Below are positions 16,893 through 49,008 of a DNA stretch of 64,000 nt, in pieces. Made by a program: the position numbers and the translations under genes. Under the pieces are notes generated by a model that worked only from the letters and a program-made list of their open reading frames with translations, was not told the origin of the DNA and ran no database searches. The DNA is from Pseudomonadota bacterium (GTDB lineage: Bacteria > Pseudomonadota > Alphaproteobacteria > Rhizobiales > Xanthobacteraceae): NCBI GenBank assembly GCA_023404705.1, contig JAEYAU010000092.1, forward strand, positions 7,527 to 71,526, in the 5' to 3' direction. The number at the start of each line of letters is the position of its first letter. The stretch's first letter is position 1.

Positions 16893-18514
<1,622 letters not shown>

Positions 18515-18518
<4 letters not shown>

Positions 18519-19705: not shown

Positions 19706-19715
19706 TCGCACTCCG

Positions 19716-23480: not shown

Positions 23481-24458
23481 TTACGCGGCTTGCGCCTCCG
23501 CCAGCTTCGTCACCAGCCGGCGTGCCAGGCCGGACGCGGCCAGCCGCCGGTATTGCGCGGAGACGACCGTGGTGCGCATGGGCTGCACCTGCTTCTGCAC
23601 CAGGCGTTCGATCTCGTGCAGCGCGTCGGCATCGACCGGCCGGCCGATCAGGGCGTCGGTGCCGGCGAGGATGAAGGGGCGCGAGTTGGTGCCGGTGAGC
23701 GCGATGCGCAAGCGCTGCGCCACGCCGTCCGCGACCGAGAGCGCGACCGCGACGCCGGCCAGCGGATAGTCGATGGCGCCACGCACGCGCACCTTGGCGT
23801 AAGTGGAAGGCGCGGGATCCGGCGGCAGCAGCACGGTTGCGACAATCTCGTCGGGTGCGAGCGTCAGATGAGCGCGGCCGTCCTCGACATAGAGATCGGC
23901 GAGCGGAATGCGGCGGCGGCCCTGCGGACCGACGATCTCGACCTCGGCGCCGAGCACCAACAAGGCCGGCGCGAGATCGCCCGTGAAGGCAGCGTGACAG
24001 CGCTGGCCCTGGGGCGCGACATGGCAGACCTCGCCCTGCCGCTTGAGGCAGTAGCCGTTCGCGCTGCGCCACCATTCGCTCTGATTGTAGTAGACGCAGC
24101 GCGTGTCGAGGCAGAGGTTGCCGCCGACCGTACCGAGCGCGCGATGGCCCGGCCCCGCAACCGCAGAGGCGGCCTCGCAGACCGCGCGGTAGCGCTCGCA
24201 GATCAACGGCAGGCCCGAGACCTTGGCGAGCTTGACGCCCGCCCCGATGCGCAGGCCGGCGAGTGTCGCCTTCACGCAACCGAGCTCGTCGATCCCCGAG
24301 AGATCGATGAGTTGCGTCGGCTCGCCGATGCCGTGGCGCAGATTGACCAGCAGGTCGGTCCCGCCGGCGACGAAGCGGCTCTCGGGATTGTCGCGGCGGG
24401 CCGCGATCGCGGCCTGCAGATCCTTCGGCTGCACCAGCGCGAAATCGAGCGTGGTCAT
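23481..24458 (-). CDS. hcrB: 4-hydroxybenzoyl-CoA reductase beta subunit (FAD-binding, with Cys-rich insertion)
   Basis: MTTLDFALVQPKDLQAAIAA...GGTDLLVNL is a CO dehydrogenase flavoprotein fold. The insertion is CLDTRCVYYNQSEWWRSANGYCLKRQGEVCHVAPQGQRCHA. The ATG overlaps the hcrA stop (ATGA). Confidence 0.85.
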   Translation of the reverse strand: MTTLDFALVQPKDLQAAIAARRDNPESRFVAGGTDLLVNLRHGIGEPTQLIDLSGIDELGCVKATLAGLRIGAGVKLAKVSGLPLICERYRAVCEAASAVAGPGHRALGTVGGNLCLDTRCVYYNQSEWWRSANGYCLKRQGEVCHVAPQGQRCHAAFTGDLAPALLVLGAEVEIVGPQGRRRIPLADLYVEDGRAHLTLAPDEIVATVLLPPDPAPSTYAKVRVRGAIDYPLAGVAVALSVADGVAQRLRIALTGTNSRPFILAGTDALIGRPVDADALHEIERLVQKQVQPMRTTVVSAQYRRLAASGLARRLVTKLAEAQAA

Positions 24459-32946: not shown

Positions 32947-34089
32947 TTGACCCCCGTCAAGGCTGCGCTTCCCGCACGAACGCATTCTGGCGCGCAAATG
33001 TCATCCGCTCGGCAGGTCACACCTCCCGCAACGGCGCGCGTGTCGGCGCGGCCCTGGGCCCGGCTCGCGCTGCTTGCCTTTGCGCCGGTGGCGCTGGTCA
33101 CGGGCCTGCTCGGCGGCCTGGTACGGCTCGGCTGGGAGCTGCCGGGCATCGGGCTCGCCGAGCTCCACGGCGGGCTGATGATCTCGGGCCTGTTCGGGAT
33201 CGTGATCGGTCTCGAGCGTGCGGTTGCGCTGGGGCATCCGGCCGCCTACGGGGCGCCGGCGCTGGCGGTGGCCGGAACCGTGGGGCTGCTCGCCGGGGCG
33301 ACCGGGCTCGGCACATTATTATATGTGGGCGCCGCGGCCGTGCTGGCCGCCGTCTCGGGCGACATTCTGCGGCGGCAGCCGGCCGTGTTCACGGCAACGA
33401 TGCTCGCGGGCGCGGCCGCCTGGCTTGTCGGCAATCTGCTGTGGTTCGCCGGCTTCCCGATCTTCGACCTGGTCGGCTGGTGGCTCGCCTTTCTGGTGCT
33501 CACCATCGCGGGCGAGCGCCTGGAGCTGAGCCGCTTGCTGGCGCCGAAGCGCGGCAGCCTGCCCCTGTTCGGCGTGGCGGTCGGCCTCATCCTCGCCGGG
33601 GCGGGCTTCGGCCTGGTCGAGCAACCGGCTGTGTTCGGCGCAGGGCTGCTGGTCGCGGCCCTCTGGCTCGCGCGCCACGACATCGCCCGCCGCAGCATCC
33701 GCGCCCATGGCGCGCCGCGTTTCTTCGCGAGCTGCATGCTGAGCGGCTATGCCTGGCTCGCGATCGCGGGCGCGCTGCTCCTGGTCGCGCCGCCCAAGAC
33801 GGCGAGCTTCGGCTACGATCTCGTGTTGCACAGCGTGCTGATCGGCTTCGTGCTCTCGATGGTGTTCGGGCACGCGCTGATCATTCTGCCGGCGGTCGCC
33901 CGGATCAGGATGGTCTATACGTCCTGGCTGTACGGTCCCCTGGTCCTGCTGCACCTCTCACTCGTGCTGCGCGCCGCGGGCGGGCTCATGGGCGCGCCGG
34001 AGCTTCGCGCATGGAGCGGCGTGATCACGGTGATCGCGCTGGTCTCGTTCGCCGGCGTTGCCGCCTATGGCGCGTTGCGCCGATCCTAG
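32947..34089 (+). CDS. polytopic integral membrane protein, family unknown
   Basis: ORF 32947..34089 with a TTG start as given. An alternative ATG is at 32998. It has about 10 hydrophobic segments and conserved-looking His ([20 protein letters not shown]). Its stop overlaps the ctaA stop (CTAG). Confidence 0.55.
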
Positions 34090-35198
34090 CTGCCGAGCGT
34101 GGCGGTCGGCGAGGCGAGGGCGGCTTGCGGCAGCGGATATTGCGCGCTCGCCCGGATGCCGAGCCTGGCCGCGTGCATGGTGGCGATCGTCAGCACGAGG
34201 ATCGCGCCTCCCTGGTGCAGAAGCGCCAGCGAGATCGGCACCATGTAGAGCAGCGTGAGAATGCCGAGTGCGGCCTGCAGCGTCATCGCCAGGGCGAGTG
34301 CGAGCGCGCCGGCGGTCACCCGCGCGCTGGCGCGGCTGCGCAGGGCGTCCGCCGCATGCAGCAGGGCCGCGAACCACAGCAGATAGGCCATCATGCGGTG
34401 ATTGAACTGCACGGTGAGCACGTTCTCGAACAGATTTCGCCAGGCGGGCTCATGCATCAGGAGCTCAGAGGCCGGCGGCAGCAGATCGCCGTCCATCAGC
34501 GGCCAGGTGTTGTAGATGAGGCCCGCGTCGAGACCGGCGACCAGCGCCCCGAGATAGATCTGCAGCAGCACAAGCCCGAGCAGCACGACGGCGCTCACGC
34601 GTAAGCGGTCCGGAGCCCGTGACGGCCTCGAAGGCGTCATGCTTTGCGCGGTCCAGACGAGGGCCGTGAAGATCACGCAGGCGATCGTCAGATGCACGGC
34701 GAGCCGATACTGCGAGACGTCGACCCGGTGGGCCAGGCCGGAGGCGACCATCCACCAGCCGATCCCCCCCTGCAGAGCGCCGAGCGCGAAGATGCCCCAG
34801 AGCCGGCCCTTCAGACCCGGCCCGATCCAGCCCTTCCAGAGGAAGAAGAGAAACGGGAGCAGGAAGGCCGCGCCGATCGAGCGCCCGAGCAGCCGGTGTC
34901 CCCATTCCCACCAGAAGATCACCTTGAACTCGTCGAGCGTCATCCGCGCGTTCACCTTCTCGAACTGCGGGATGGTCTTGTACTTGTCGAACTCCGCCTG
35001 CCAGGCCGACTCGCTCAGCGGCGGCAGGGTGCCGGTGATCGGCTTCCATTCGACGATGGAAAGGCCGGATTCCGTGAGGCGGGTCGCGCCGCCGACCAGC
35101 ACGATGGCGAAGACCAGCGCGGCGACAACATAGAGCCACAGTCTGACGACGCGGCGGGAGGTCTCGGTTGGCTCGCTCATCTCAGGATCCTGCGACAT
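34086..35198 (-). CDS. ctaA: heme A synthase (COX15/CtaA)
   Basis: [18 protein letters not shown]..., [15 protein letters not shown] and QFNHRMMAY are COX15/CtaA hallmarks. The start is 35198 or 35180. Confidence 0.85.
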
Positions 35199-35261: not shown

Positions 35262-35696
35262 CTAGAATTGCTGCCTGGCCACGGGCATCGACTGCTCCGC
35301 CGCGGCGTTGATGATCAGCACGGCGATCTGGTCCATGCTGTCGATGTGCCCGCGAACGATCGGCGGCAATGCGCGGCGCAGAATGCTGCGCGCGGTCCGC
35401 GGCTTGCGCTCAGATTGGGCCAGCGCCTCGTCGCAGATCGCGATCATCTCGTCATGCTCCTGCCGATGGCAGCGGCAAAAGGCGGTGCCCGCGGCCTCGA
35501 CCAGCGCGGCCTCGTTCTCGAAATGCGTCCGCATCACCTTACGCAGCCGCGCGATGCGCAACGGCAGTGCGATGGGCGCACTGTGCATCACGCTCGCCCA
35601 GGCCTCGGCGATCGCGAAGTGATCGACGTCGATCGCGGTATGGCCCAGAGCGTGGCGCGGACCGATCAAGGGGCGCGCCGTCGTGACAGTCGACAT
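35262..35696 (-). CDS. hemerythrin-like metal-binding protein
   Basis: The ATG at 35696 follows GGAGAT. Motifs are GHTAIDVDHFAI, THFENEAALVE, HRQEHDEMI and RGHIDSMD, the bacteriohemerythrin pattern. Confidence 0.65.
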   Translation of the reverse strand: MSTVTTARPLIGPRHALGHTAIDVDHFAIAEAWASVMHSAPIALPLRIARLRKVMRTHFENEAALVEAAGTAFCRCHRQEHDEMIAICDEALAQSERKPRTARSILRRALPPIVRGHIDSMDQIAVLIINAAAEQSMPVARQQF

Positions 35697-35747
35697 GGGA
35701 TCTCCGATCCAGGGGCAGGACGCTGGCATGGCCTCGCGCCCCGCGGC

Positions 35748-35786: not shown

Positions 35787-36533
35787 TCAGGGCGTCGGCG
35801 GCAGATCCGGCCCGTTTCCTCCGGCGAGCTCCTCCAGCACGCGAGCGTCGGCGATATCCAGCTTGCGGCCTCGCACCGTCACGCCGAGGCCGCTGAGGCG
35901 GGCGAGCTCGCGCGACAGGGTCTCGGGCGCCATCGCGAGCCGTGCCGCGAGCACCGCCTTGTCATAGGGAAGCTGGATCGGCCCGCGGACCTCGCGATGC
36001 ATCGCGAGAATCCATCCAACCAGCCGTTGGAAGCTGGTGCGTGCGCGCAGGTTCTTCACCTCCCGCAGCAGGTCGTCCCAGCGCGCCGCGAGGTGCCGGT
36101 TCACGAAATCAGCGAATTCCCGCTCGGTCGCGAACAGCCTGCGGGCATCCGCGAGGCCGATGCGGCCCACGCAGGTTCTCTGCAGAACTCGCGCCGAGGT
36201 GAGCAGCGGTCCATCGCGGCAGATCGCGTCGACCGGCAGCAGAGTCGGTGCACGCTGGATGGTCAGCGTGATCTGCCGGCCCTCTGCGCTCGTGAAGATC
36301 TGGACGAGTCCTTCCAGCACCAGGAACAATGACTCGGCGGGCTCGCCTTCGCGGAGCAGCAGGCTACGCGCCGGGGCCTGCTCGATCGACGTTACGGCCA
36401 GAAGTGCATCAACCACCTTCGGTGACAAGGCGGCCAGCATCGGGCTGGCGCGGACCAGTTCGGACTTGCAATGCTCGGACGGACCGATGGGCGGTCCCGC
36501 GGCACTACGCATGAGGTGGAATCCGCGATCCAT
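35787..36533 (-). CDS. Crp/Fnr family transcriptional regulator (no N-terminal Cys cluster)
   Basis: It has a cNMP-binding-like domain (LLLREGEPAESLFLVLEGLVQIF) and an HTH with the E--SR recognition motif (MAPETLSRELARL). The start is uncertain: 36533, 36512 or 36440. Confidence 0.75.
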   Translation of the reverse strand: MDRGFHLMRSAAGPPIGPSEHCKSELVRASPMLAALSPKVVDALLAVTSIEQAPARSLLLREGEPAESLFLVLEGLVQIFTSAEGRQITLTIQRAPTLLPVDAICRDGPLLTSARVLQRTCVGRIGLADARRLFATEREFADFVNRHLAARWDDLLREVKNLRARTSFQRLVGWILAMHREVRGPIQLPYDKAVLAARLAMAPETLSRELARLSGLGVTVRGRKLDIADARVLEELAGGNGPDLPPTP

Positions 36534-36635
36534 GGTCCCTGGAAGTGGTGCTGGTAGGCAATATGCCCGTGCCGCGGCGTCACACGCTTGACCGCGGTCA
36601 ATCGCAATGCACGTCGGAGGCGGTCGGTGGCGAGT

Positions 36636-36649
36636 TTGACCTAGATCAA
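36636..36649. promoter_or_regulatory. FNR-type box TTGAC-ctag-ATCAA between the two divergent Crp/Fnr genes
   Basis: It has one mismatch to the consensus and is centred 90 nt from the 36733 ATG and about 110 nt from the 36533 ATG. Confidence 0.55.
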
Positions 36650-36732
36650 CGAATGCGTTGTCACGCCGCCTATATTGCGATGACCTGGGGGAAAGCGTGA
36701 ACCGCCCCCGAAGCGCGATCGAGAGAGCATTC

Positions 36733-37512
36733 ATGACCCGACGCGTCGAGCATTCTTCGAGTGTCCCGACACCCGTGGACCTGGCCGTCGTCTCCCGGAT
36801 CGCGGTGTTCCGTGGTTTGAAGCCGGATACGATCCAGCGGATCGTGGCCCCCGCGACGGTCGCGACACTGCGCGAACGTGAGGTGCTGTTCCGGCAGGGC
36901 GATCCCGCGGCGGCCTTCTTCATCGTCGTGGAAGGCTGGGTGAAGCTCTATCGGATCACGCTTTCGGGCGAGGAGACCGTGATTCACGTCCTCACCAAGG
37001 GCGACAGCTTCGCCGAGGCGGTCGCGTTCACGGGAGCCTCCTATCCGGCCACCGCCGAAGCGGTGAGCGACGCTCGCGTCGTGCGTATCCCGGCCGACCA
37101 CGTGGTGCGCTGCATCCGCGAGATGCCGGACATCGCGCTCGCCATGATCGCCTCCACCTCGCAGCATCTGCACCACCTGGTGCAACAGGTCGAGCAGCTC
37201 AAGGCGCAGAGCGGCGTGCAGCGCGTGGCGGAGTTCCTCGCCGGGCTCTGTCCCGCCGAGCAGGGCTCCGGCACGATCGCGCTGCCTTACGACAAGGTGC
37301 TGATCGCCGCGCGCCTCGGTCTCAAACCCGAATCGCTGTCGCGCGCCTTCGCCAAGCTGAGATCGTTCGGGGTCGACGTGCGGGCCTCGCATGTCGCGGT
37401 GCGCGACATCGCCAAGCTGCGGCAACTCGCGGCGGACGATCGCGGCGCGATCCGCGGCACGCTGCGGCTTCCCCAGCGCTCCGCCGAGCCGCTTGCGGCG
37501 CGTGGATCCTGA
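36733..37512 (+). CDS. Crp/Fnr family transcriptional regulator, FixK-like (no Cys cluster)
   Basis: The ATG at 36733 follows GAGAGAG. Motifs are VLFRQGDPAAAFFIVVEGWVKLYR and an HTH with LKPESLSRAFAKL (E--SR). Confidence 0.8.
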   Translation: MTRRVEHSSSVPTPVDLAVVSRIAVFRGLKPDTIQRIVAPATVATLREREVLFRQGDPAAAFFIVVEGWVKLYRITLSGEETVIHVLTKGDSFAEAVAFTGASYPATAEAVSDARVVRIPADHVVRCIREMPDIALAMIASTSQHLHHLVQQVEQLKAQSGVQRVAEFLAGLCPAEQGSGTIALPYDKVLIAARLGLKPESLSRAFAKLRSFGVDVRASHVAVRDIAKLRQLAADDRGAIRGTLRLPQRSAEPLAARGS

Positions 37513-37971: not shown

Positions 37972-38376
37972 TCAGTGCGGGTGCGCGCCGAGCTTCTTGT
38001 GCAGGCGCGCGTCATGAGTCTCGAAGTGCCGCGCGAACCAGGCTTCGAGCCGGGTCGCGAGCGTGTCGCTGTCGAGCACCTCGGCATCCGCGAAGTCGTC
38101 CATGATGTCGCGGATCTCGTCAAGCAGACGCTCGTGGTCGGTCTTGTGCTGCGTGAGCTGATCATAGCTTCGCTCGCGCATGAAGCGCTCCTCGAGCGCG
38201 AAATGCATCGAGATGCCCTTGAACAGGTCGCCGAAAAACGCCTCCACCCGGATCTTCTCGTTCTTTCCGGCGAGCTCGTCATAGAGCCGGTTGATGAGCT
38301 CGATCAGCTCCTGATGCTCGTGATCGACCGCTTCGATCCCGACGCTGTACTGGGGCTTCCATTGCAGCAGTGGCAT
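37972..38376 (-). CDS. bacteriohemerythrin
   Basis: MPLLQWKPQYSVGIEAVDHEHQELIELIN..., HFALEERFM, HKTDHERLL and FARHFETHDARL. The ATG is at 38376. Confidence 0.8.
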   Translation of the reverse strand: MPLLQWKPQYSVGIEAVDHEHQELIELINRLYDELAGKNEKIRVEAFFGDLFKGISMHFALEERFMRERSYDQLTQHKTDHERLLDEIRDIMDDFADAEVLDSDTLATRLEAWFARHFETHDARLHKKLGAHPH

Positions 38377-38447: not shown

Positions 38448-38951
38448 CTAGCGAAAGATGAACTCGCCGCTCTCTGCGCGGAAATCGATCACGAAAAGCT
38501 GGTCCGGAACAAGAGCGACGCGGCCGGCGCGCTGGTGGTCGAAGCCTTCCTGGCGCGGCGTGTCGCGCATGCGCACCGCGATCTCGTGGGCGCCGGCCGG
38601 CACCACGAAGCGCTCGTAGACGCGCGAGGGCCCGTCGCCCGCGATGCCGGTGGGCGGCAGCGCGGCGCGCAGCACCGACTTGCCGTCGATGTCGAGCTCG
38701 ACATGCAGCGGGCGGCGGCCGCGCGGGCACTCCTCGACGCGGCGCATGTTGGGCGGCAGCTTGGCGATCTCGGCGGGTGAGAGGCGCCGGCATTCGGCCT
38801 TGCGGTCGGCGCCGTGCACGAAGGTGAGCATGACGATCGCCGTGTCGGGCGGCGTCTGCCGGTAGACGGGGCGGTTAGCGAAGGCCGTTACGCCCGCGAA
38901 CAGTGCGAGGATGATGAGGAACTGGGCGAGCGTGCGCGCCATACCGATCAT
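38448..38951 (-). CDS. hypothetical membrane-anchored protein
   Basis: It has an N-terminal TM (LAQFLIILALFAGVTAF) followed by a ~140-aa soluble part. The ATG overlaps the stop of the upstream cytochrome b fusion (ATGA). Codons are GC3-rich. Confidence 0.55.
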   Translation of the reverse strand: MIGMARTLAQFLIILALFAGVTAFANRPVYRQTPPDTAIVMLTFVHGADRKAECRRLSPAEIAKLPPNMRRVEECPRGRRPLHVELDIDGKSVLRAALPPTGIAGDGPSRVYERFVVPAGAHEIAVRMRDTPRQEGFDHQRAGRVALVPDQLFVIDFRAESGEFIFR

Positions 38952-40540
38952 GGCGCGGTTCCTTCCGGCACGCGTTGCGGGGCGCTCGCCGGGGCGGGCG
39001 CGACCGAGGGCCGCGACTTGTGCATGACCGGCGGCGGCAGGGCCGCGACCTCTGCCGTGAAGGCGGCGCGCTCGCGCTCGAAGCGGGCGATCTCCAGGGC
39101 GGAGGCCCAGATCGTCTTCAGCCGCTCGCGCGGCACGCGGGCGCGCAAATAAGGATCGCGCGTTCCGGCGAAGCGCTGCTCGGTCCAGGCGACGCCGAGC
39201 CGGTTGTAACAGGCGCTCTCCGAGCAGCCCGCGACCACCACGCCCTCGGCGAGCTTGCGGCTGAGCACGTAGTCGATCATCGAGGGCGGCACCATGGCGA
39301 CGCAGGGGACCGGCACGACACCATCGGTGCCGCCGGCGCCGCCGCCGTGCTCACAGGCGAACACCAGCGCGCGGGCAGGGCCGGTGAGCTGGTCGGACGC
39401 TGCATGGGTGCGCTCGCGCAGCTCGCGCAGCGAATATTCCGGCAGGTCGATGCCGGTCTTGAGCTCCGCGGTGCGTCGGAACGGCGTCGAGGAGGGGCAG
39501 GAGCCGGTGCAGATGCCGCAGGAGACGCAGAGCGAGGGATTGACCTGGGCTTCCGTCGGGAAGGGCAGGTCATCGCTGCGCTTCACCATGCGGATCGCCT
39601 CGTAGGGGCAATCCTCGGCGCAGCGTCCGCAGCCGTTGCAGTGCTCGAGCGTGACCTCGGCGGCTTTAGCTCGCCGCAGCGGCGGCAGCCAGGGCATGAG
39701 ACCGAGCATGACCGAGAAGGCGGCGAGGAAGCCCCAGACCGCGCCTTTGCCCCAGAGATCCGTGAGCGGGTAGAGCGGCAGGAAGAACCAGTCGAGTCCG
39801 ACCTCGACGGGTGCGCGCGCGAGATCGACCTGGCCTTGCGAGAGCGCGGGCTTCCACAGCGAGACCGCGACCAGCGCGGCGAGCGTCATCAGCGCGAGCG
39901 CGCGCGGCGGATTCACCTTCGGGCGCGAGATGCGCAGGATGTGCACCCACATGATGAACAGCAGGAACAGCGGCACCGCGATGTGCATGAACACCATGAG
40001 GCTGAAGAAGCGGCTGGTGAGCGTGCCGGTGGCGACGAAATTACGCGCGATCGGCTCGCCGAAGATCGGCAGCCAGTCGAGCAGCTCGGAGGTGACGAGG
40101 GCGACGTACTGGGCGAGCTTGTCCCAGACCAGCCAATAGCCCGTGATGCCCGAGGCATAGAGCAGCCAGATGATCGGCAGGCCGGTGAGCCAGGAGAAGA
40201 AGCGGGCGCCGCGGTAATGGTCGTAGGCGAACTCGCGCAACAGATGCGTCACCACCATCACGACCATCAGGTCGGAGGCGTAGCGGTGCAGGCTGCGCAT
40301 CACGCCGGCGTGGAACCAGTAGTTCCGGCTGATGGTCTCGACCGACTGATAGGCCTGCTCGATGCCGGTATCGAAGAAGATGAACAGATAGATGCCGGTG
40401 ACCGCGACCACCCAGAAGAAGAAGAAGCCGAGCGCGCCGAGCTGCGCCAGCGGATTGAGGGCGGGGCCGAACAGGCGTTCGAACGGCCGTTCGATCGCCT
40501 CGAAGCCGTAGCGGAGGACCTTGCGTAGGAAAGCGATCAC
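38948..40540 (-). CDS. fusion protein: dihaem cytochrome b (N-terminal domain type) + 2x[4Fe-4S] ferredoxin + MvhD/FlpD-like domain
   Basis: Two H-x13-H pairs lie in TM helices (LHRYASDLMVVMVVTH and MHIAVPLFLLFIMWVH). The ferredoxin motifs are CNGCGRCAEDCP and CVSCGICTGSCP. The C-terminus is ALVFACEHGG...PCVAMV...VVVAGCSESACYNRLG. I prefer the GTG at 40540, which is preceded by GGAGA. The ORF track's longest start (GTG 40594) would overlap senC by 29 nt. Confidence 0.72.
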   Translation of the reverse strand: MIAFLRKVLRYGFEAIERPFERLFGPALNPLAQLGALGFFFFWVVAVTGIYLFIFFDTGIEQAYQSVETISRNYWFHAGVMRSLHRYASDLMVVMVVTHLLREFAYDHYRGARFFSWLTGLPIIWLLYASGITGYWLVWDKLAQYVALVTSELLDWLPIFGEPIARNFVATGTLTSRFFSLMVFMHIAVPLFLLFIMWVHILRISRPKVNPPRALALMTLAALVAVSLWKPALSQGQVDLARAPVEVGLDWFFLPLYPLTDLWGKGAVWGFLAAFSVMLGLMPWLPPLRRAKAAEVTLEHCNGCGRCAEDCPYEAIRMVKRSDDLPFPTEAQVNPSLCVSCGICTGSCPSSTPFRRTAELKTGIDLPEYSLRELRERTHAASDQLTGPARALVFACEHGGGAGGTDGVVPVPCVAMVPPSMIDYVLSRKLAEGVVVAGCSESACYNRLGVAWTEQRFAGTRDPYLRARVPRERLKTIWASALEIARFERERAAFTAEVAALPPPVMHKSRPSVAPAPASAPQRVPEGTAP

Positions 40541-40565
40541 CTGTGTCTCCGGTGCGATGCGGGGG

Positions 40566-41375
40566 TCATGCGGCGCCTCGCGCGCGCCCGGCACGTCGCC
40601 ATTCGCGCAGGAGCAGGCCGCCCATCAGCAAGAGGGAAATGGCCGCGATCACGCTGCCGAACGTCAGGCCGTAGTCGATGCGGTAGCGCCCCAATCCCGG
40701 ATCGTAGATCGTGCAGATGAACTTGATGCGGTCGATCAAGCCGTTGAACGTGAAGCTTGTCGTGGTGCCGTAGACCACGTCCTTGAGCGGCTCCATGAAC
40801 ATCTGGATGGGGAAATCCTCGCCGTAGACGTGGCGATAGATCCTGCCGTCGCGATCGAGGATCGTGGTCTGCGTCACGTGGTCGAAGCCGCCGGCGGCGG
40901 TCGCATAGCTGAAGCCGAGCTCGCGCAGCAGCACCGCGATGGTCGCGGGATCGCCGCTCGCGAGGCGCCAGTTGTCGAAGCGCACGCCCTGGGCGGACGC
41001 GAACTGGGTGAGACGGGCCGGCGTGTCGTTGCGGGCGTCGAAGCCGATGGTGAGGACAGTGAACTGATCGGCGCCGAACATGCGGCGCGCCTCGCCGACC
41101 GCGTCGATCAGGTGCTGGGTCGTGACCGGGCAGACCGAGGCGCACGCCGTGTAGACGAGGCTGATCACCAGCGGCTTGCCGCGCAGGCTGTCGAGCCGCA
41201 GGGGCGCGCCCTTCTGGTCGGTCAAGACGTGGTTGCCGAGGGTGCGGCCGATGGCGGCCTGGCTGCGCTCGACGGCCTGACGCGGATCGAGGCGCGCCTC
41301 GCGCGGCTCCGCCGCGTACGCAATGCCGGCGAGCCCGAGAACGAGCCCGGCCGCGACCGCGAGTGCGCGTGTCAT
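40566..41375 (-). CDS. senC: SCO1/SenC family copper chaperone with extra C-terminal TM extension
   Basis: It has a signal peptide MTRALAVAAGLVLGLAGIAYA, a thioredoxin fold with CASVCP and a downstream His (GFDHVTQTT), and a C-terminal hydrophobic tail FGSVIAAISLLLMGGLLL. The ATG overlaps the ctaB stop (ATGA). Confidence 0.78.
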   Translation of the reverse strand: MTRALAVAAGLVLGLAGIAYAAEPREARLDPRQAVERSQAAIGRTLGNHVLTDQKGAPLRLDSLRGKPLVISLVYTACASVCPVTTQHLIDAVGEARRMFGADQFTVLTIGFDARNDTPARLTQFASAQGVRFDNWRLASGDPATIAVLLRELGFSYATAAGGFDHVTQTTILDRDGRIYRHVYGEDFPIQMFMEPLKDVVYGTTTSFTFNGLIDRIKFICTIYDPGLGRYRIDYGLTFGSVIAAISLLLMGGLLLREWRRAGRARGAA

Positions 41376-42244
41376 GGCCGGGTCCCGAAGATCCCGTCGA
41401 GCACGACGCCGAGCACCAGCAATGCGAGCTGCAGCAGGGAGGCGAAGAAGTTCGCCATGGCGTTCTGCTTGGTCGGTGCGCGGTGCAACTGGATGCTCTT
41501 CCAGAGGAAGAATGCGCCGCCGCTCGCGGCGCCGAGGCCATAGAGCGCGCCGAGGCCGTACCAGAGCGGCACCAGCGAGATTGCGGTCAGCGCGGCCGTG
41601 TGGCTGAGCACCGCCGATGTCCAGGCGCGCGCCGGCACCACGATCGGCAGCATCGGCACGCCTGCCTTGGCATAGTCCTCGCCCTTCGCGGCGGCCAAGC
41701 TCCAGAAGTGCGGCGGCGTCCACAGGAACAGCACGACGGCGAGGACCACCGGCACGAGCTGCGGCGCCGGGTCGACGGCCGCCGCGCCGGCCAGCACCGC
41801 GAAGCTGCCGGCGAGTCCGCCGACCACGATGTTCCAGGTGCTGCGGCGCTTCAGCCACACCGTGTAGACGATGCCGTACGTGAAGGCGCCGAGAAAGACG
41901 AAAGCGGCCGCCATGCCGCCGCCGACCGCCCAGGCGAGGGCGAGGGAGGCTGCGAGCAGCGCGAGGAAGGCGGCGAGCCACCAGGGACTCGCCGCAAAGG
42001 CGCCGCTCGCGAAGGGACGCGACTTCGTCCGCCGCATGTGACGGTCGAGGTCGCGGTCATAGTAGTGATTGAAGGCGCCGGCTGCGCCGGACGCGCCGAG
42101 CACGGCGAGCGACAGGCCGAGCGCCTGCCACCAGGTCGGGGCAGGGCCGCTTGTCGCTGCCATGCCAGCGAGCGCGCTCGCCGCGATCGCTATTCCGATC
42201 CTGAGCTTCAGGAGCGAAACCGTCATGCGGACCGCGGCGAGCAT
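41372..42244 (-). CDS. ctaB: protoheme IX farnesyltransferase (heme O synthase)
   Basis: UbiA family motifs NHYYDRDLDRHMRRTKSRP and WTPPHFWSLA. The RBS is GGAGAAG. Confidence 0.85.
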   Translation of the reverse strand: MLAAVRMTVSLLKLRIGIAIAASALAGMAATSGPAPTWWQALGLSLAVLGASGAAGAFNHYYDRDLDRHMRRTKSRPFASGAFAASPWWLAAFLALLAASLALAWAVGGGMAAAFVFLGAFTYGIVYTVWLKRRSTWNIVVGGLAGSFAVLAGAAAVDPAPQLVPVVLAVVLFLWTPPHFWSLAAAKGEDYAKAGVPMLPIVVPARAWTSAVLSHTAALTAISLVPLWYGLGALYGLGAASGGAFFLWKSIQLHRAPTKQNAMANFFASLLQLALLVLGVVLDGIFGTRP

Positions 42245-42281: not shown

Positions 42282-44003
42282 TCAGCGGAACAGCCAGAGT
42301 TCCGAGAGATATTTCCAGTTGATGAAGTAGTAGAGGACGAACGACACGAAGAAGATGGTGACGAGCACGATCGTGCCCGGCAGCTTCACCGTGGCGTGGC
42401 TCCCGTAGTGCGAGGCGGCGGCGCCGCCGCCCTGATGGAGCGGGAAGGTGAGCTTGTGCCCGGCCGTGATCTTCTTGCCGAACAGCACGGTGCCGACCAC
42501 CACCACCACGTAGATGACGCCGCCCGCCGCCGCGAGGATCGCGAACACGCCGTTCAGTCCCATCATCAGGAAGGCGCCGGCCGAGTGCGCGAAGGAGATC
42601 GTCGCGTCACTGAAGGTGATGTCCCAGTGACGGCGTGGCACGCCGAGGGTGCCCGCGCCCATCATGAACATCGAGATGCCGGCGGCGCCGATGCCGAACA
42701 CATAGGGCTGCAGCTTGGCGAGCTTCGGCCACACGATCTCGCGCTGGAAGATCAAGGGGAGCACCAGGTAGGTGCCGCCCATGAAGGCGAGCGTGGTGCC
42801 GGCGACGACCGTGCCGTGGAAGTGGCCCGGCACGTAGATCGTGTTGTGCATCAGCACGTTGAGCTGCTCGGTGCCGAGCACCACGCCGGAGATGCCGCCG
42901 ATGAAGCCGAACATCACGAGCGAGAGGAACATGGCCGCGAAGGCCGGGTTGCCCCACGGTGCCTTGCGCAGCCACTCGAACACGCCCTTGGTGTAGCCGT
43001 TCTTGCGCTGGGCGGCTTCGATCGCGCCCGGCACGGTGAGGCCGTGGATCATCGATCCGAGCACCGCGAGATACATCATGTAGCTGGTATTGACGATCTT
43101 CCAGCTCGCCGTCATGCCGGGCTCGGCGAGCAGGTGATGCGCCGAGGCGAGCTGCAGGAACAGGATGTAGAGGAAGAACGCGGTGCGGCTCACCTTCTCG
43201 GAGAGCGGCTTGGCGCCGAGCAGCAGGGCCACCGTGAGATACCAGATCGAGACATGCGCCGAGACGTTGATCTGTTGCGACGAGTGACCCATCGCCCACC
43301 AGACGACCTTGTACATCAGCGGGTCGATGTCGCCGATCCATCCGAGCGACCAGAGCCAGGTCGGGATCAGGATGATGGCGCCGGACGCGATGGTGAAGAC
43401 TGCGATGATCGCGGCCGTCAGCGCGCCGAAGGTCACGAGCGGCATGGAGCCCTGATAGGTCTGCTCCTCCTTGGCGACCGCGAGGGTCGCGAAGAAGATG
43501 CCGACACCGATCAGCGCGCCGACGGCGAACAGGATCAGCCCCAGATAGAAGTTGGATTTCGCCATCATCGGCGGATAGGACGTGAACATCACGCTCGATT
43601 CGCCGCGCAGCACCTCGACATTGGTGAGCACGGCACCCACCACCATCAGCACGAAGCCGAGCCAGGCGATCTTCGGTGCGGGCAGGCGGCAGTTGAGCAG
43701 GACCGCGGAGGCGAAGTAGAGCACCGCGATCTCGAAGAAGATGATCCAGAACAGCAGCACATTGGCGCCGTGTCCGGTGAGCACGAGGTAGAACCACTCG
43801 GCCGGCAGCAGGTGAACGGCCGGCCAGCGTGTGAGCGCGACCAGCAGGCCCATGAGGCCGCCGAGCGCCAGGAAGATCACGGCCGCGACCGCATTGGCCT
43901 TGATCAGCGCTTGCGCCGCGGCGTCGACTTTGAGTCCCGTGTAGGGACAGGTGCGGAAATCCGCGGCTCTGCCGCCGACACCGACGATGGTTTCAGCAGT
44001 CAT
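42282..44003 (-). CDS. heme-copper oxidase superfamily subunit I, B-family-like, lacking the cross-link Tyr (candidate NO reductase-type enzyme)
   Basis: LTGHGANVLLF (low-spin heme His), WWAMGHSSQQ (CuB His, with Gln where A/B-family oxidases have Tyr at His+4), LASAHHLL (CuB His pair) and PGHFHGTVV (heme His pair). Confidence 0.82.
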   Translation of the reverse strand: MTAETIVGVGGRAADFRTCPYTGLKVDAAAQALIKANAVAAVIFLALGGLMGLLVALTRWPAVHLLPAEWFYLVLTGHGANVLLFWIIFFEIAVLYFASAVLLNCRLPAPKIAWLGFVLMVVGAVLTNVEVLRGESSVMFTSYPPMMAKSNFYLGLILFAVGALIGVGIFFATLAVAKEEQTYQGSMPLVTFGALTAAIIAVFTIASGAIILIPTWLWSLGWIGDIDPLMYKVVWWAMGHSSQQINVSAHVSIWYLTVALLLGAKPLSEKVSRTAFFLYILFLQLASAHHLLAEPGMTASWKIVNTSYMMYLAVLGSMIHGLTVPGAIEAAQRKNGYTKGVFEWLRKAPWGNPAFAAMFLSLVMFGFIGGISGVVLGTEQLNVLMHNTIYVPGHFHGTVVAGTTLAFMGGTYLVLPLIFQREIVWPKLAKLQPYVFGIGAAGISMFMMGAGTLGVPRRHWDITFSDATISFAHSAGAFLMMGLNGVFAILAAAGGVIYVVVVVGTVLFGKKITAGHKLTFPLHQGGGAAASHYGSHATVKLPGTIVLVTIFFVSFVLYYFINWKYLSELWLFR

Positions 44004-44006: not shown

Positions 44007-44582
44007 TTATCTCCCATCGGCGAGGCGTTCGCCGGCCTCGGCCCGCTTCGGTTCCGTGACGTAGATCTTGCCGGTCATCGTGTGATGACCGATCCCGCAG
44101 AACTCGTTGCAGACGATCCCGAACTCGCCGGACTCCGTCGGCGTCAGGGTGATCACGTGCTCGTAGCCGGGATGGACCTGGATGTTGATGTTGGTCGGCT
44201 GCAGCGAGAAGCCGTGCTGCCAGTCGATCGAGGAGAGATGGAAGCGATAGCTCTTGCCCTTCTCGAGCTCGAGAATCGGCCACCAGTTCCACAGCCGGCC
44301 CAGCATGTAGACGTCGGTATTGGCGGGCGGCTTGACCACCGGCACGCCCTTTTCCTCGCGTACCGTGTACTTCTTGGTGAATTCCTCGACCTTCGTCTCA
44401 TAGCGCGAAGGCGCGATGCGATAGGCCTCGCGGCTCAGATTCTGGCCACCGATGAAGTGCCAGGCGATCATGAAGCCGAACATGAACAGGCCCCAGAGAA
44501 AGGCGATGACCGTCCAGGTCAGCTCGACTCTCTCGATGGGTTCGTTCCACCAGACTCGTTGTTCGGGTGGTGTGACGGCCAT
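44007..44582 (-). CDS. heme-copper oxidase subunit II with intact CuA site
   Basis: It has one N-terminal TM and a cupredoxin domain with WQHGF...CNEFCGIGHHTM (H, C, C, H and M ligands). Its stop lies 3 nt before the subunit I ATG. Confidence 0.82.
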   Translation of the reverse strand: MAVTPPEQRVWWNEPIERVELTWTVIAFLWGLFMFGFMIAWHFIGGQNLSREAYRIAPSRYETKVEEFTKKYTVREEKGVPVVKPPANTDVYMLGRLWNWWPILELEKGKSYRFHLSSIDWQHGFSLQPTNINIQVHPGYEHVITLTPTESGEFGIVCNEFCGIGHHTMTGKIYVTEPKRAEAGERLADGR

Positions 44583-45565: not shown

Positions 45566-48127
45566 TCACAACTGCAGGCGGCGCCGCCAGAGCGGCTTGA
45601 TCAGCTCGAGGATCAGCAAGAGTGCGAGCCCGGCACCGAGGGTGAGCGCGAGATCATCGTGATGCAACGGGCCGAACCGGAACAGAGTGCTCGCCGCGGG
45701 CCAGACCAGCGTCAGGCCGAGGGTCGTGGCGACCACCAGCAGGATCAACGCGAGGATGGGATTCGGACGTCTGAATGCCGCCAGCAGTGACGTGCTGAAG
45801 GAGCGGTTGATCAGAATAAGACTGACGATGCAGACCACGAGAGAGAAGAAGGTGATCGCGCGCGCCTCGTCCGGCGGCATGCCGCGCGCGAGCGCCACGA
45901 CATAGATCGCCGCGCACAGGGCAAAGGCCAGCGCGCCTTGCAGGACACTCCAGGCGATCAGCGGCCAGGAAAAGAGCGGCTCGTCAGGCGGGCGAGGCGG
46001 ACGGTTCATGACGTCCGCTTCTTCGGTCTCGGCTTCGAAAACCAGCGTGCACACCGGGTCGATCACCATCTCGAGAAACGCGATATGAATCGGACCGAAG
46101 ATGATAGGCAGTCCGAACACGAGCGGCAGAAGGGCGAGGCCGGCGATCGGCACATGCACCGCGAAGATGAATGCCATGGCCTTGCGCAGATTGTCGTAGA
46201 TGCGACGGCCGAGGCGCACCGCGGTCACAATCGATCCAAAATCGTCGTCGAGCAGAACGATGGCGGAGGCCTCGCGCGCCACGTCGGTCCCGCGGCCACC
46301 CATGGCCACGCCGATGTGGGCGGCCTTGAGGGATGGCGCGTCGTTCACGCCGTCGCCCGTCATGGCGACGATATCGCCTCGGCCCTTCAGGGCCTGAACG
46401 ATGCGCAGCTTCTGCTCCGGCATGATGCGCGCGAACACGCTGGTGCGTCCGGCACGGCGCGCAAGCTCGCCGTCGGATAGAGCCTCCACATCCTCCCCGG
46501 TCACGACCTCGGCGGCATCGATCCCGGCCTCGGCCGCAATGGCGCGCGCGGTGGCCGGATAGTCCCCGGTGATCATCACGACGCGGATGCCGGCGGAACG
46601 GCATTCGCGAACGGCCGCGGGCACACTTGGCCGCAACGGATCGGCAAGCCCGACAAGACCGAGAAAGTCGAAACGAAAGCCAAGGGGCGACGCGGGAAGG
46701 CTCTCGCCCACATGGGTCGCCTTCGCCACGGCCAGCACACGTAACCCTTCGCGGGCCATGGCATCGACGGCGTGATGCATCGCGTCTGTGGCGGCACTGT
46801 CGAGACCGCAAAGTCGCGCAATGCTCTCCGGCGCCCCCTTGCTTGCAATCGCCAAGCCGGACTCGTTGTCGTCTCCCTTCCAGGCATGCGTCACGGCGAG
46901 GAGTTCGGGCCGAAGACCGTACCCGTGCACGAGCTTCCATTGAGAATCCAGTGCTCGCGCGGACCCAAGCCCGTCGCGCGCGAAGGCATGAAAGGCCTTC
47001 TCCATCGGATCGAACGGCTCGGGGGCGCTTGCCAGCAAGCCATAAGTGGCCAGCTCGTGGAACGGGCCGGGAATGCCCGCCGCCATGCCGTCGCGGGACC
47101 GGAAGACATTGCCGTCCGGCAGCCGGAGCTCCACGATCGACATCCGGTTTTCGGTGAGGGTGCCGGTCTTGTCCGTGCAGAGCACGGTGGCAGAGCCGAG
47201 CGTCTCGATCGACGCGGCGCGTCGCGTCAGCACGCGTGCGCGCGATATTCGCCAGGCGCCCATCGCCATGAACACGGTCAGCACGACCGGAAATTCCTCC
47301 GGCAGCATCGACATGCCAATGGCGATGCCCGCAAGGAGCGCTTCCAGCCAGCCGCCGCGCAACGTGCAGTAGAGGACGATTGCGACCAGGCTCACGGCCG
47401 CGCCTCCAAGGGCGGCAAGCCGCACCAGGCGCCTGGTCTGGAGCTGCAGCCGCGGCGGCTCCGCTTCAAGCCCGTGAAGCGATTGCCCGATCTTGCCGAT
47501 CTCACTGCGCGCGCCTGTCGACAGGACCTCGGCGAGGCCGCTTCCCCGCACGACCAATGATCCCGAATAGACGAACGGCAAGTCATCGCCGCCAGGCCGC
47601 GCCGGGCCGGCCGGCAGGGTCGTGGCCGCAACCTTGCGGACAGGCACCGATTCTCCGGTGAGCAGGGATTCATCCACTTGGACGTCGTGGCTCTCGCGCA
47701 GCGCGGCATCGGCAGGAACCCGGTCGCCCTCGGAAAGGACCACGAGGTCGCCGCGCACCACCTCGCGGCCGGGGATGCGCTTGCGCTCCCCATCGCGAAC
47801 CACCAGGGCACGCGGGCTTGTGAGATCTCGGAGCGCCTCGAGCACCCGTTCGGTGCGCGTCTCTTGCACGACCGTGATCGCGACCGACAGCATCGCGAAG
47901 GTGAGGAGGATCAGCGATTCCTTGAGGTCGCCGAGCAGGAGATAGATGAGCCCTGCGCCGAGCAGGAGGAGGAGCATCGGCTCGCGCAAGACCTCCAGGA
48001 CGATCCGCAGCGCCGTGCGCCGGTCGGCTCGCGGCAACTCATTGAAGCCCTCGGATTTGAGGCGCAGCTCGGCCTCGGCCACGCTGAGGCCGAGCCTGTT
48101 CGGGGGCGCGTCCTCGTCATTGCTCAT
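45566..48127 (-). CDS. cation-transporting P-type ATPase (P2-type, Ca2+/Mg2+-like)
   Basis: An 853-aa protein with TGESVPV, CTDKTGTLTEN, MITGD and TGDGVNDAPSLK. The ATG overlaps the FNT gene stop (ATGA). Confidence 0.88.
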   Translation of the reverse strand: MSNDEDAPPNRLGLSVAEAELRLKSEGFNELPRADRRTALRIVLEVLREPMLLLLLGAGLIYLLLGDLKESLILLTFAMLSVAITVVQETRTERVLEALRDLTSPRALVVRDGERKRIPGREVVRGDLVVLSEGDRVPADAALRESHDVQVDESLLTGESVPVRKVAATTLPAGPARPGGDDLPFVYSGSLVVRGSGLAEVLSTGARSEIGKIGQSLHGLEAEPPRLQLQTRRLVRLAALGGAAVSLVAIVLYCTLRGGWLEALLAGIAIGMSMLPEEFPVVLTVFMAMGAWRISRARVLTRRAASIETLGSATVLCTDKTGTLTENRMSIVELRLPDGNVFRSRDGMAAGIPGPFHELATYGLLASAPEPFDPMEKAFHAFARDGLGSARALDSQWKLVHGYGLRPELLAVTHAWKGDDNESGLAIASKGAPESIARLCGLDSAATDAMHHAVDAMAREGLRVLAVAKATHVGESLPASPLGFRFDFLGLVGLADPLRPSVPAAVRECRSAGIRVVMITGDYPATARAIAAEAGIDAAEVVTGEDVEALSDGELARRAGRTSVFARIMPEQKLRIVQALKGRGDIVAMTGDGVNDAPSLKAAHIGVAMGGRGTDVAREASAIVLLDDDFGSIVTAVRLGRRIYDNLRKAMAFIFAVHVPIAGLALLPLVFGLPIIFGPIHIAFLEMVIDPVCTLVFEAETEEADVMNRPPRPPDEPLFSWPLIAWSVLQGALAFALCAAIYVVALARGMPPDEARAITFFSLVVCIVSLILINRSFSTSLLAAFRRPNPILALILLVVATTLGLTLVWPAASTLFRFGPLHHDDLALTLGAGLALLLILELIKPLWRRRLQL

Positions 48128-49008
48128 GCGTCGGAAGGCGTCCGGCTCGGGCTGGGTCGGAGGTAGACAAACCAGTAGACGACGCCGACAAGGACACCGC
48201 CACCCACAACATTACCGATCGTCACCGGGATCAAGCTCCAGAAGAATGCGGGCCAGCTCAGATCAGCCACATGGGCAGTCGAGACCGAGCCCAGGGCGCT
48301 CGGTCCCCAATCCCTGATCATCATGCCGAGCGGTATGAGGTACATGTTCGCCACCGAGTGCTCAAATCCGGCGGCGACAAACGCTGCGACCGGAAACAGA
48401 ACCGCGAGCACCTTGTCGGCGGTCGTGCGCGCGCCGATGGACAGCCAGACCGCGAGGCAGACTAGAACATTGCAGAGGATGCCCAGGAAGAATGCCCGGC
48501 CGAATGGAAGGGCGGCTTTGGAGGACGCGATCGATACGGCGATCTCGGCGACGACACCATCACCCGACAAGTGCTGACCCGAAAGGAAGACGAGGACCGC
48601 GGTTCCGAACGCGCCGACAAAGTTGCCGACATAGACGATGAGCCATGCCCGCAGCATTTCCAGGCCGGTGATCTTGCGCGCAGCCAAGGCCATGACCATC
48701 AGTGTGTTGCCGGTGAACAATTCGGCTCCGCCGACAACCACCAGGATCAGCCCCAGCGAGAACACGAGCCCGGCGAAGAGTCGCGTGATGCCGAACGGAA
48801 GCACCCCATCGGCGCCGGCCATGACGGTGGTGGCGAACATCGCTCCAAGGCCGATGAACGCCCCCGCCAACATCGACAGAACGACAAGTCTCGAGAGGTC
48901 CAGGCGCGCCTTTTGGGCGCCGATCGTCTCTGCCTTCTGCGCGATCTCGGCCGGAAGAAGCGCATCGATCACGAAGCGTGGTTCTGGAGGGCGCATATTC
49001 TCATCCAT
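48124..49008 (-). CDS. formate/nitrite transporter (FNT) family channel
   Basis: GAELFTGN, FFLGILCNVLVCLAVW and AAGFEHSVANMY are FNT signatures. The substrate cannot be told from the sequence alone. Confidence 0.85.
   Translation of the reverse strand: MDENMRPPEPRFVIDALLPAEIAQKAETIGAQKARLDLSRLVVLSMLAGAFIGLGAMFATTVMAGADGVLPFGITRLFAGLVFSLGLILVVVGGAELFTGNTLMVMALAARKITGLEMLRAWLIVYVGNFVGAFGTAVLVFLSGQHLSGDGVVAEIAVSIASSKAALPFGRAFFLGILCNVLVCLAVWLSIGARTTADKVLAVLFPVAAFVAAGFEHSVANMYLIPLGMMIRDWGPSALGSVSTAHVADLSWPAFFWSLIPVTIGNVVGGGVLVGVVYWFVYLRPSPSRTPSDA

Follow-up and report, generated by a model that had tools for sequence, protein, structure and literature searches.

A Rieske-less cytochrome b fused to an Hdr/Mvh-type iron-sulfur relay, the proposed redox core of an accessory module conserved in eNOR and B-family haem-copper gene clusters

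Introduction

One question raised by a 64,000-nucleotide stretch of a Xanthobacteraceae genome (assembly GCA_023404705.1, contig JAEYAU010000092.1, positions 7,527 to 71,526; this whole stretch is hereafter named the window) is what an electron-transfer protein of composite structure does beside the genes of a nitric oxide (NO) reductase-type enzyme. The gene in question (38948..40540, minus strand) encodes a cytochrome b with six transmembrane helices followed by two [4Fe-4S] motifs and an MvhD/FlpD-like domain, 530 amino acids (aa) in total, and its product is referred to below as the fusion protein. We found that SenC, the fusion protein, a 167-aa protein named orf167 and a bacteriohemerythrin make up a conserved accessory module which accompanies eNOR and B-family haem-copper gene clusters, and that the fusion protein most likely provides its redox core. 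Its family is built of known modules, namely a Rieske-less bc-type cytochrome b, an iron-sulfur (Fe-S) relay of the heterodisulfide reductase (Hdr)/Mvh type and a periplasmic sandwich domain.

eNOR-type enzymes are among the newly recognised families of NO reductases, which together are estimated to represent a large share of NO reductase diversity and produce the greenhouse gas N2O (PMC11214002). Within the cluster, the conservation of the fusion protein, orf167, SenC and the bacteriohemerythrin equals that of the catalytic subunits, and the role of the fusion protein would reveal either a new biogenesis route for copper- and haem A-containing respiratory enzymes or a new coupling of the quinone pool to NO reduction. 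Dibrova et al. proposed that the bc complexes arose from a cytochrome b bearing a cytoplasmic oxidoreductase, and the family analysed here is a living example of that proposed ancestral form (PMC5600118). In addition, the gene provides a practical genomic marker of eNOR and B-type oxidase clusters.

Domain structure, cofactor ligands and topology of the fusion protein

The assignment of three parts (cytochrome b, two [4Fe-4S] motifs and MvhD/FlpD) made in the original prediction was supported in agreement by Pfam, PDB, profile and Foldseek searches. Using the numbering of a 548-aa form with an earlier start codon (see below), Pfam matched Cytochrome_B (PF00033) at residues 45-222 (E 2.5e-20) and Fer4/Fer4_7 at residues 314-369, all above the gathering scores, and FlpD (PF02662) at residues 426-519 (E 1.6e-10; 41.5 bits vs a cut-off of 22.3). 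Among the NCBIfam models, residues 310-519 of the same form matched the C-terminus of HdrA2 (ferredoxin plus MvhD) as a single unit, and the N-terminus was nearest to cytochrome b6 and ExtP-type cytochromes. All other residue numbers refer to the 530-aa form, and residue conservation was scored in an alignment (A1) of 33 homologues that are 28-51% identical to the fusion protein.

The cytochrome b6-like four-helix core (residues 24-212; 39905..40471, minus strand) matched cytochrome b6 of the PDB with an E value of 3e-19. It contains the haem ligands His85/His99 and His186/His200, each pair spaced as H-x13-H, and these four histidines are invariant. The core is followed by a part resembling subunit IV (residues 213-290; 39671..39904, minus strand), which consists of helices E and F and the ef loop, where the stretch GLDWFFLPLYP aligns with the PEWY motif. 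The equivalent of PEWY in this family reads xDWF(Y/F), with D250 and W251 conserved in at least 90% of the homologues, and helices G and H of the bc cytochromes are absent. A profile of residues 203-298 (A5) matched subunit IV of the b6f complex (E 5e-5) and residues 240-314 of bc1 cytochrome b (E 1e-4). This indicates that the membrane part is more than a four-helix anchor and comprises, beyond a cytochrome b6, also helices E and F with a Qo-like loop. The AlphaFold2 model obtained with a diverse alignment (predicted local distance difference test, pLDDT, 88.7; predicted template modelling score, pTM, 0.86) gave bc1 cytochrome b as the top Foldseek matches, over about 285-320 columns. By homology, these comparisons show a Rieske-less cytochrome b of the bc type that has six helices and two predicted sites for b haems and has kept a Qo-like ef loop.

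The likeness to cytochrome b6 plus subunit IV and to bc1 cytochrome b thus extends from the homologous di-haem core, with the motifs MRSLHRYAS and VWDK (the latter similar to PWDQ), to helices E and F with their PEWY-like loop. Unlike those complexes, the cluster of the window encodes neither a cytochrome c1 or f nor a Rieske protein; a motif scan of all open reading frames (ORFs) in 80 related loci (described below) gave five scattered Rieske matches, none of them conserved. The fusion protein also differs in having only six helices and in carrying a cytoplasmic Fe-S domain where the n-side is normally free. It lacks the cysteine that binds haem cn in proteins of the b6 type, since no cysteine is present in residues 1-300.

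The ferredoxin-like domain (39488..39655, minus strand; Pfam Fer4 and Fer4_7) contains two CxxCxxCxxxCP motifs (Cys301/304/307/311 and Cys338/341/344/348), all eight cysteines of which are invariant, and it matched the C-terminal ferredoxin domain of HdrA and MvhB in the PDB search. In the MvhD/FlpD-like domain (residues 390-501; 39038..39373, minus strand; PF02662) the candidate [2Fe-2S] ligands are Cys396, Cys413, Cys439 and Cys444; the first three are invariant and Cys444 is conserved in at least 90% of the homologues. The best PDB relative of this domain is MvhD (5odc_D, E 1e-3), with whose cysteines Cys413, Cys439 and Cys444 align. The six hydrophobic helices place the Fe-S part on the same side of the membrane as the N-terminus, which is cytoplasmic by homology with cytochrome b. 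Hence, the Fe-S part is cytoplasmic, as the original prediction had expected, and the AlphaFold2 model agrees. The ligands thus show, as a prediction, a cytoplasmic wire of three clusters, two [4Fe-4S] and one [2Fe-2S] of the MvhD type.

The ferredoxin plus MvhD unit is the part shared with the Mvh-Hdr relay of methanogens (MvhD and the C-terminus of HdrA2). Unlike in that system, no hydrogenase, HdrABC or flavin partner accompanies the fusion protein, and the relay is joined to membrane haems in aerobic or denitrifying Proteobacteria. The MvhD module normally partners heterodisulfide reductase, as the original prediction pointed out; no hdr, mvh or flx genes were found among the neighbours in the window cluster or in the 80 loci. 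The principle of two b haems leading across the membrane from a quinone site to Fe-S clusters on the cytoplasmic side is also known from NarI-NarH, HdrE-HdrD, QmoC and DsrMK, and QmoC is likewise a fusion. Those systems differ from the fusion protein in using a cytochrome b of the NarI type and in feeding a known cytoplasmic catalytic site; no such site is evident here.

Conservation of the accessory module next to the eNOR genes

In the window, the fusion gene forms part of a same-strand array in the order subunit II, subunit I, haem O synthase, SenC, fusion protein, orf167 and bacteriohemerythrin. The 573-aa subunit I (42282..44003, minus strand; Pfam COX1) is a B-family-like haem-copper subunit whose best PDB match was the ba3 oxidase of T. 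thermophilus, a B-family enzyme; its GHSSQQ motif includes the residues HSSQQ that align with HPIVY of ba3, so that a glutamine replaces the cross-linked tyrosine. This replacement is the diagnostic feature of eNOR (Hemp & Gennis, as used in PMC8756737). It upholds the earlier view of an operon of the NO reductase type, and the neighbouring enzyme is assigned to the eNOR type with a predicted NO reductase activity. The sNOR encoded by the norSY-senC cluster of nitrifiers was also considered as the neighbouring enzyme and was dropped, because subunit I bears the eNOR-diagnostic glutamine. The eNOR of Rhodothermus marinus, which carries a modified haem A in each of its two sites, has been proven to reduce NO, and NO reductase activity without O2 reductase activity has been shown only for this enzyme (PMC11214002).

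The 191-aa subunit II (44007..44582, minus strand) was recognised by its CuA motif (CNEFCGIGHHTM) and an upstream histidine; NCBIfam CoxB and the CuA domain of NosZ matched below their cut-offs. The haem O synthase CtaB/CyoE (41372..42244, minus strand; Pfam UbiA) scored 243 bits with the NCBIfam equivalog TIGR01473 (cut-off 210), and its stop codon is overlapped by the ATG (41375) of the gene for the 269-aa SenC/Sco1 copper chaperone (40566..41375, minus strand; Pfam PF02630), which has an N-terminal anchor and a CASVCP motif. Downstream of orf167, the 134-aa bacteriohemerythrin (37972..38376, minus strand, from ATG 38376) matched NCBIfam NF033749 with 101.5 bits (cut-off 84). An assignment of this protein as a repair protein of the RIC/YtfE type was set aside, as it scores as a bacteriohemerythrin.

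At its C-terminus, SenC is unusual in being extended by about 55 residues, which comprise 'FICTIYDPGLGRYRIDYG' and another transmembrane helix and gave no Pfam or NCBIfam match. Most of the 78 loci with SenC directly upstream of the fusion gene conserve this extension as far as residue 247.

In order to analyse the conservation of this array, 80 related loci were compared, in which the fusion protein is 51-79% identical to that of the window; they were found with a narrower alignment (A2), which biases the sample to at least 51% identity and mostly to Alphaproteobacteria. The gene order was fixed, with subunit II, subunit I, (ctaB), SenC, fusion protein, orf167 and hemerythrin following one another. 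SenC was directly upstream of the fusion gene in 78 of the 80 loci, orf167 was present in 77, and the bacteriohemerythrin came directly after orf167 in 71. Subunit I was present in 71 loci, ctaB in 60 and subunit II in 59, the gaps in these counts being due mostly to contig ends. All co-located subunit I genes in which the region was recovered (64/64) encode the motif GH(S/G/A)(S/T/A)QQ.

The variable neighbours are denitrification genes, such as those for NirS (18/80), a NirE-like methylase (15/80) and NnrS (13/80). ApbE was found in 22 loci together with a 712-aa Fer4_5 protein similar to NosR/NirI (also 22/80), and a Crp/Fnr regulator is a neighbour in 26. A small cytochrome c is encoded right after the hemerythrin in 27 of the 80 loci, which is not so in the window. 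About a quarter of the loci have the module within a denitrification island (NirS, NirE-like methylase, ApbE, NosR/NirI-like protein, NnrS).

orf167 and the split and fused forms of the protein

The orf167 gene (38448..38951, minus strand) starts in overlap with the stop codon of the fusion gene and encodes an N-terminal transmembrane helix and a beta-sandwich. Many representatives of the family are 690-720 aa long, and their extra 170 residues are homologous to orf167; in the 692-aa homologue P0122 the C-terminus is 42% identical to it. A domain of this kind is fused at the C-terminus in 69 of 106 near-full-length cluster representatives. Since most relatives are fused, the window holds a split version of a four-part protein, and the term tripartite used earlier falls short by the part encoded in ORF 38448-38951. 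Judged by this homology, orf167 is the detached C-terminal domain of an ancestral four-part protein. Its domain is periplasmic, because the extra transmembrane helix follows the cytoplasmic MvhD domain.

About 2900 homologues of orf167 are detectable, nearly all of them named 'hypothetical', and the protein belongs to no Pfam or NCBIfam family; when 62 homologues were searched with Pfam up to E 10, only sporadic matches to CarboxypepD_reg were obtained. The AlphaFold2 model (pLDDT 94.3) consists of the N-terminal transmembrane helix and a sandwich of eight strands. Foldseek found only generic beta-sandwiches (query TM-score no higher than 0.38), and no cupredoxin, PCuAC, CopC or Rieske fold. 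The invariant residues include H46, C54, N68-M69-R70 and C75-x-R-x-R (with R77 and R79) and are located in an insertion between the first two strands. H46, C54, M69 and C75 are of the kind that may bind Cu(I) or form a disulfide.

Reading frame and start codon

The uninterrupted ORF was confirmed at 38948..40594 (minus strand), so the domains belong to a single reading frame, as had been assumed. The ambiguity of the start codon, also pointed out in the original prediction, is real: translation from GTG 40594 would give 548 aa, and translation from GTG 40540 gives 530 aa. A GGAGA ribosome-binding site precedes GTG 40540, which begins 25 nt beyond the end of senC (stop codon TGA, 40566-40568). 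In close relatives the homologous position is GTG or ATG with a GGAG motif upstream, and in 35 of 79 loci an in-frame stop codon is found inside the 18 codons upstream of it. Most database relatives have a length of about 527-536 aa; the 548-aa form is also on record (P0495, from an 84,740-bp NCBI/Logan/ENA contig). Comparison of these sequences indicates that GTG 40540 is most likely the start.

Distribution of the family and distant relatives

A word-indexed search with the fusion protein returned 5002 proteins at E values up to 1e-5. The top 120 matches, mostly from Xanthobacteraceae, Bradyrhizobium and Hyphomicrobiales, are about 530 aa long and have the same domain set, one of them without a precomputed FlpD match. 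An exhaustive search of representatives clustered at 50% identity gave 528 clusters at E below 1e-30, and relatives occur in at least 593 species genomes. The architecture, present in more than 5000 proteins, is therefore not unusual, contrary to the earlier description. The family carries generic annotation only and has no family model of its own.

More distant relatives showed the same association in other arrangements. In locus L084 (31% identity), the fused form is flanked by an eNOR-type subunit I (GHSAQQ) on one side and SenC on the other, and in L086 (35% identity) the homologue comes after subunit I and SenC. In L087 (273-4903), a homologue of 792 aa (30% identity) was found directly behind a true B-family oxidase with the motif GHPLVY and a CuA subunit II. 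This O2-reducing partner indicates that the family is tied to B-type haem-copper enzymes generally and not to NO chemistry itself. At least one homologue, that of L082, is an orphan beside mreBC, away from any oxidase gene.

Two representatives differ in their fusions. In P0204, SenC is fused to the N-terminus of the cytochrome b, the single SenC fusion among 150 representatives. In P0153 the cytochrome b module is 55% identical, including the motif LDWFYL, and domains of the flavodoxin, flavin adenine dinucleotide (FAD) and NAD(P)H type replace the Fe-S/MvhD part. The gene of this diflavin paralogue adjoins those for PCuAC, CtaG, SenC and NnrS, and its cluster also has an Fe-S version with a 167-aa ORF. 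In the metagenomic locus L085 (4020-5516 and 8001-10484), an eNOR-type cluster holding the Fe-S version is directly followed by a second cluster. The latter encodes a COX1-like protein of 498 aa (H-V-L-Q-Y, no obvious HH motif), then PCuAC, CtaG, SenC, the diflavin form of the cytochrome b (with flavodoxin-FAD-NAD(P)H domains) and NnrS.

No functional study of the family was found in the literature. A table of neighbouring genes in a 2022 paper includes a protein from Chloroflexi that combines cytochrome b6, DMSOR-beta-like and FlpD domains. The eNOR operon of Ferrigenium straubiae has been described as eNOR II, eNOR I, haem o synthase, sco1 and a 'scaffold protein', together with two 'rather unusual' added genes, 2878407319 and 2878407323, for a protein with cytochrome b and Fe-S and a protein with cytochrome b, Fe-S, FAD and NADH parts (bioRxiv 10.64898/2026.01.22.701106). 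They resemble the fusion protein in this composition, in a partial similarity to bc1 chain C and in their place in an eNOR operon; matched by description, they are very probably members of the family and of its diflavin paralogue. The Ferrigenium proteins were detected in the proteome of denitrifying cells, and the authors speculated that a supercomplex might couple the reduction of NO to that of NAD+ (bioRxiv 10.64898/2026.01.22.701106). In that preprint the genes appear as markers of Ferrigenium and as a quinol:NAD+ oxidoreductase, whereas here the family is a widespread part of eNOR/B-type clusters.

Possible functions of the module

As to the direction and purpose of the electron flow, we infer that the fusion protein might be a dedicated electron relay for the assembly or the redox maintenance of the metal centres of the neighbouring enzyme. 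This proposal is tentative, with a probability of roughly 0.4, and is drawn by analogy. The transmembrane relay would link the quinone pool and/or a cytoplasmic donor to periplasmic copper-handling proteins (SenC and possibly orf167) and would keep Cu or Sco reduced for the formation of CuA. Alternatively, it may serve the maturation steps that depend on O2 and haem A. Its role would be comparable to that of CcoG for the cbb3 oxidase and of NosR for N2O reductase, and it would not be a generator of low-potential ferredoxin for benzoyl-CoA reductase.

The position of the gene argues for an assembly role, since it sits in the cofactor-biogenesis block (ctaB, senC), behind the structural genes. 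So does the tie with SenC, which is evident from adjacency, from the rare fusion in P0204 and from the extra C-terminal transmembrane helix of SenC; this helix ends on the cytoplasmic side, just ahead of the N-terminus of the cytochrome b. The diflavin paralogue P0153 points in the same direction, because it sits among the copper chaperones PCuAC, CtaG and SenC. Modules of the diflavin type usually transfer electrons from NAD(P)H onto an acceptor, as do NOX, FRE and the STEAP metalloreductases, which also favours a reducing relay. The job of the protein is not NO-specific, given the true B-family O2 reductase of L087. Moreover, a cytochrome c, the ordinary donor to CuA, is often co-encoded, and the small cytochrome c found after the hemerythrin could be this donor. 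The eNOR of R. marinus was active as isolated, with ascorbate and tetramethylphenylenediamine (TMPD) as electron donor (PMC11214002).

The layout also parallels that of CcoG/FixG, in which a polytopic membrane part is combined with two [4Fe-4S] clusters on the cytoplasmic side and an Ig-like domain in the periplasm, and whose gene comes right after the oxidase structural genes, among assembly genes (PMC7558416). CcoG, encoded downstream of ccoNOQP, is a proven cupric reductase for the assembly of the cbb3 oxidase, and its physiological donor is unknown (PMC7558416). Unlike the fusion protein, CcoG has neither haems nor an MvhD domain. CrpH, a membrane reductase with haem b that supports haem-copper enzymes, provides another precedent (PMC13038864).

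Several points weigh against this proposal. The retained Qo-like loop and cd helix suggest a genuine quinol chemistry, which is needless for a pure relay from cytoplasm to periplasm, and an assembly factor equipped with five redox centres would be costly. To our knowledge, there is little precedent for a haem passing electrons to a disulfide. No homology to CcoG was found, as Fer4_5, Fer4_18 and FixG_C were not among the Pfam matches of the fusion protein or of the 62 orf167 homologues. In the Foldseek comparison the fold of orf167 matched no copper chaperone, and no copper site is recognisable in it. SenC is fused to the protein in just the one representative mentioned above, and the orphan homologue of L082 has no oxidase gene beside it. 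The presence of the Ferrigenium proteins in the denitrifying proteome fits a structural role equally well (bioRxiv 10.64898/2026.01.22.701106).

A structural role of this type, the main alternative, which we hold to be possible and somewhat doubtful, would make the protein a SoxC-like, Rieske-less subunit that oxidises quinol in a supercomplex with the eNOR or B-type oxidase. Quinol would be oxidised at the Qo-like site and the electrons would pass to CuA, either without an intermediate or through orf167, SenC or the small cytochrome c. The result would be a self-contained quinol:NO oxidoreductase whose cytoplasmic Fe-S wire takes the second electron or feeds the n-side. The quinol oxidase SoxABCD of Sulfolobus does contain a Rieske-less bc-type cytochrome b, SoxC, encoded with a haem-copper enzyme; the fusion protein differs from SoxC by its Fe-S domain, and the neighbouring eNOR subunit II keeps CuA. 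The NCBIfam SoxC model (NF041076) gave a weak match (E 4e-9) with 35.8 bits, far below the equivalog cut-off of 740. What speaks for such a subunit is that the cytochrome b is of the bc type, with the cd-helix and PEWY-like motifs conserved family-wide, and that it is tightly co-located across taxa with the genes of subunits I and II, to which it is directly adjacent in L087. orf167 and SenC, being membrane-anchored periplasmic domains, are formally like the Rieske protein and cytochrome c1. An eNOR supercomplex has also been proposed in the Ferrigenium preprint, where the proteins were seen in the proteome (bioRxiv 10.64898/2026.01.22.701106). Nevertheless, neither a Rieske protein nor any other known high-potential acceptor that could serve a Qo site is encoded in the cluster, a recognisable cofactor fold is lacking in orf167, and in 78 of the 80 loci the fusion gene stands behind ctaB/senC and not beside the structural genes. 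The CuA entry site of eNOR and the cytochrome c of many loci mean that the ordinary route from bc1 to cytochrome c suffices, and both the cytoplasmic Fe-S/MvhD wire and its replacement by a diflavin reductase are left unexplained.

The same Qo-like site, together with the n-side wire and its homology to the low-potential relay of HdrA/MvhD, would also allow quinol-based electron bifurcation or reverse electron flow, which generalises the idea of the original prediction and appears improbable to us. One electron of quinol would run downhill to the high-potential NO reductase and the other through the b haems into low-potential Fe-S clusters, with ferredoxin as the end acceptor or, in the diflavin paralogue, NAD(P)+. 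Similar schemes have been proposed for anammox bc complexes with NAD(P) oxidoreductase subunits. A diflavin paralogue is present in L085 and in Ferrigenium, a chemolithoautotroph for which its authors propose quinol:NAD+ reduction coupled to NO reduction. We give as little credence to a copper-based counterpart of the bc complex that bifurcates, in which orf167 and SenC would stand in for the Rieske protein and cytochrome c1 and hand one electron to CuA, and the driving force of NO reduction would push the second through the b haems into the Hdr/Mvh-type wire, to ferredoxin or, in the diflavin paralogue, NAD(P)+. Bifurcation is opposed by the lack of a first acceptor equivalent to the Rieske cluster and by the hosts, most of which are heterotrophic Alphaproteobacteria with no obvious need for it. 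Cysteine motifs do not fix the potentials, and the same motifs occur as well in high-potential proteins of the NarH/DmsB type. No ferredoxin-consuming enzyme is conserved nearby in the 80 loci, and the benzoyl-CoA reductase island of the window is 29 kb off and has its own gene resembling a 2-oxoacid:ferredoxin oxidoreductase. An inward redox loop is just as improbable. Here quinol would be oxidised at the p-side, as in NarI, and both electrons would travel through the Fe-S wire to the co-encoded bacteriohemerythrin, regenerating its ferrous, O2-binding form for the delivery of O2 to haem A synthase or for the scavenging of O2 or NO. A p-side quinol site is predicted to be retained, the bacteriohemerythrin (above its NCBIfam cut-off) follows orf167 in 71 of the 80 loci, and in the window CtaA and a second hemerythrin are encoded just downstream. 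The modified haem A of eNOR needs O2 for its synthesis, and eNOR is expressed under microoxic conditions (PMC11214002). Such a loop leaves the periplasmic orf167 domain and the linkage and fusion with SenC unexplained, and CtaA does not recur beside the module in the 80 loci. We know of no precedent for a methemerythrin reductase of the Fe-S/MvhD type.

Other genes in the window

Downstream of the module, the window encodes the haem A synthase CtaA (34086..35198, minus strand), the second protein with a hemerythrin domain (35262..35729, minus strand) and two regulators of the Crp/Fnr type, whose listed ORFs overlap (35787..36923, minus strand, and 36658..37512, plus strand). Upstream of the eNOR genes and on the same strand (45566-49008, minus), a P2-type cation ATPase of 853 aa and a formate/nitrite transporter of 294 aa were observed; neither is conserved beside the module in the 80 loci.

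An anaerobic aromatic-degradation island spans positions 376-27085 of the window, with its benzoyl-CoA reductase genes about 29 kb from the fusion gene. The original prediction had connected the fusion protein with the demand of benzoyl-CoA reduction for low-potential ferredoxin. This link was not supported: the partners in the 80 loci are eNOR/B-type oxidase genes, SenC, orf167 and bacteriohemerythrin, with denitrification genes as variable neighbours. Because no benzoyl-CoA genes are among the conserved neighbours and the distant island has its own candidate ferredoxin reducer, a role in ferredoxin supply is unsupported. The benzoyl-CoA reductase genes adjoin this candidate, a 1265-aa thiamine pyrophosphate enzyme that may be a 2-oxoacid:ferredoxin oxidoreductase (376-4173, minus strand). 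On the plus strand, the island includes genes with the domains HGD-D (5572-7326) and BcrAD_BadFG (8096-9982), an AMP-binding CoA ligase (16893-18518) and a periplasmic binding protein with an ATP-binding cassette (ABC) transporter (18515-22351). A protein with FAD_binding_5 and CO_deh_flav_C matches (23481-25673, minus strand) has, as we read these Pfam matches, the flavoprotein domains typical of 4-hydroxybenzoyl-CoA reductase.

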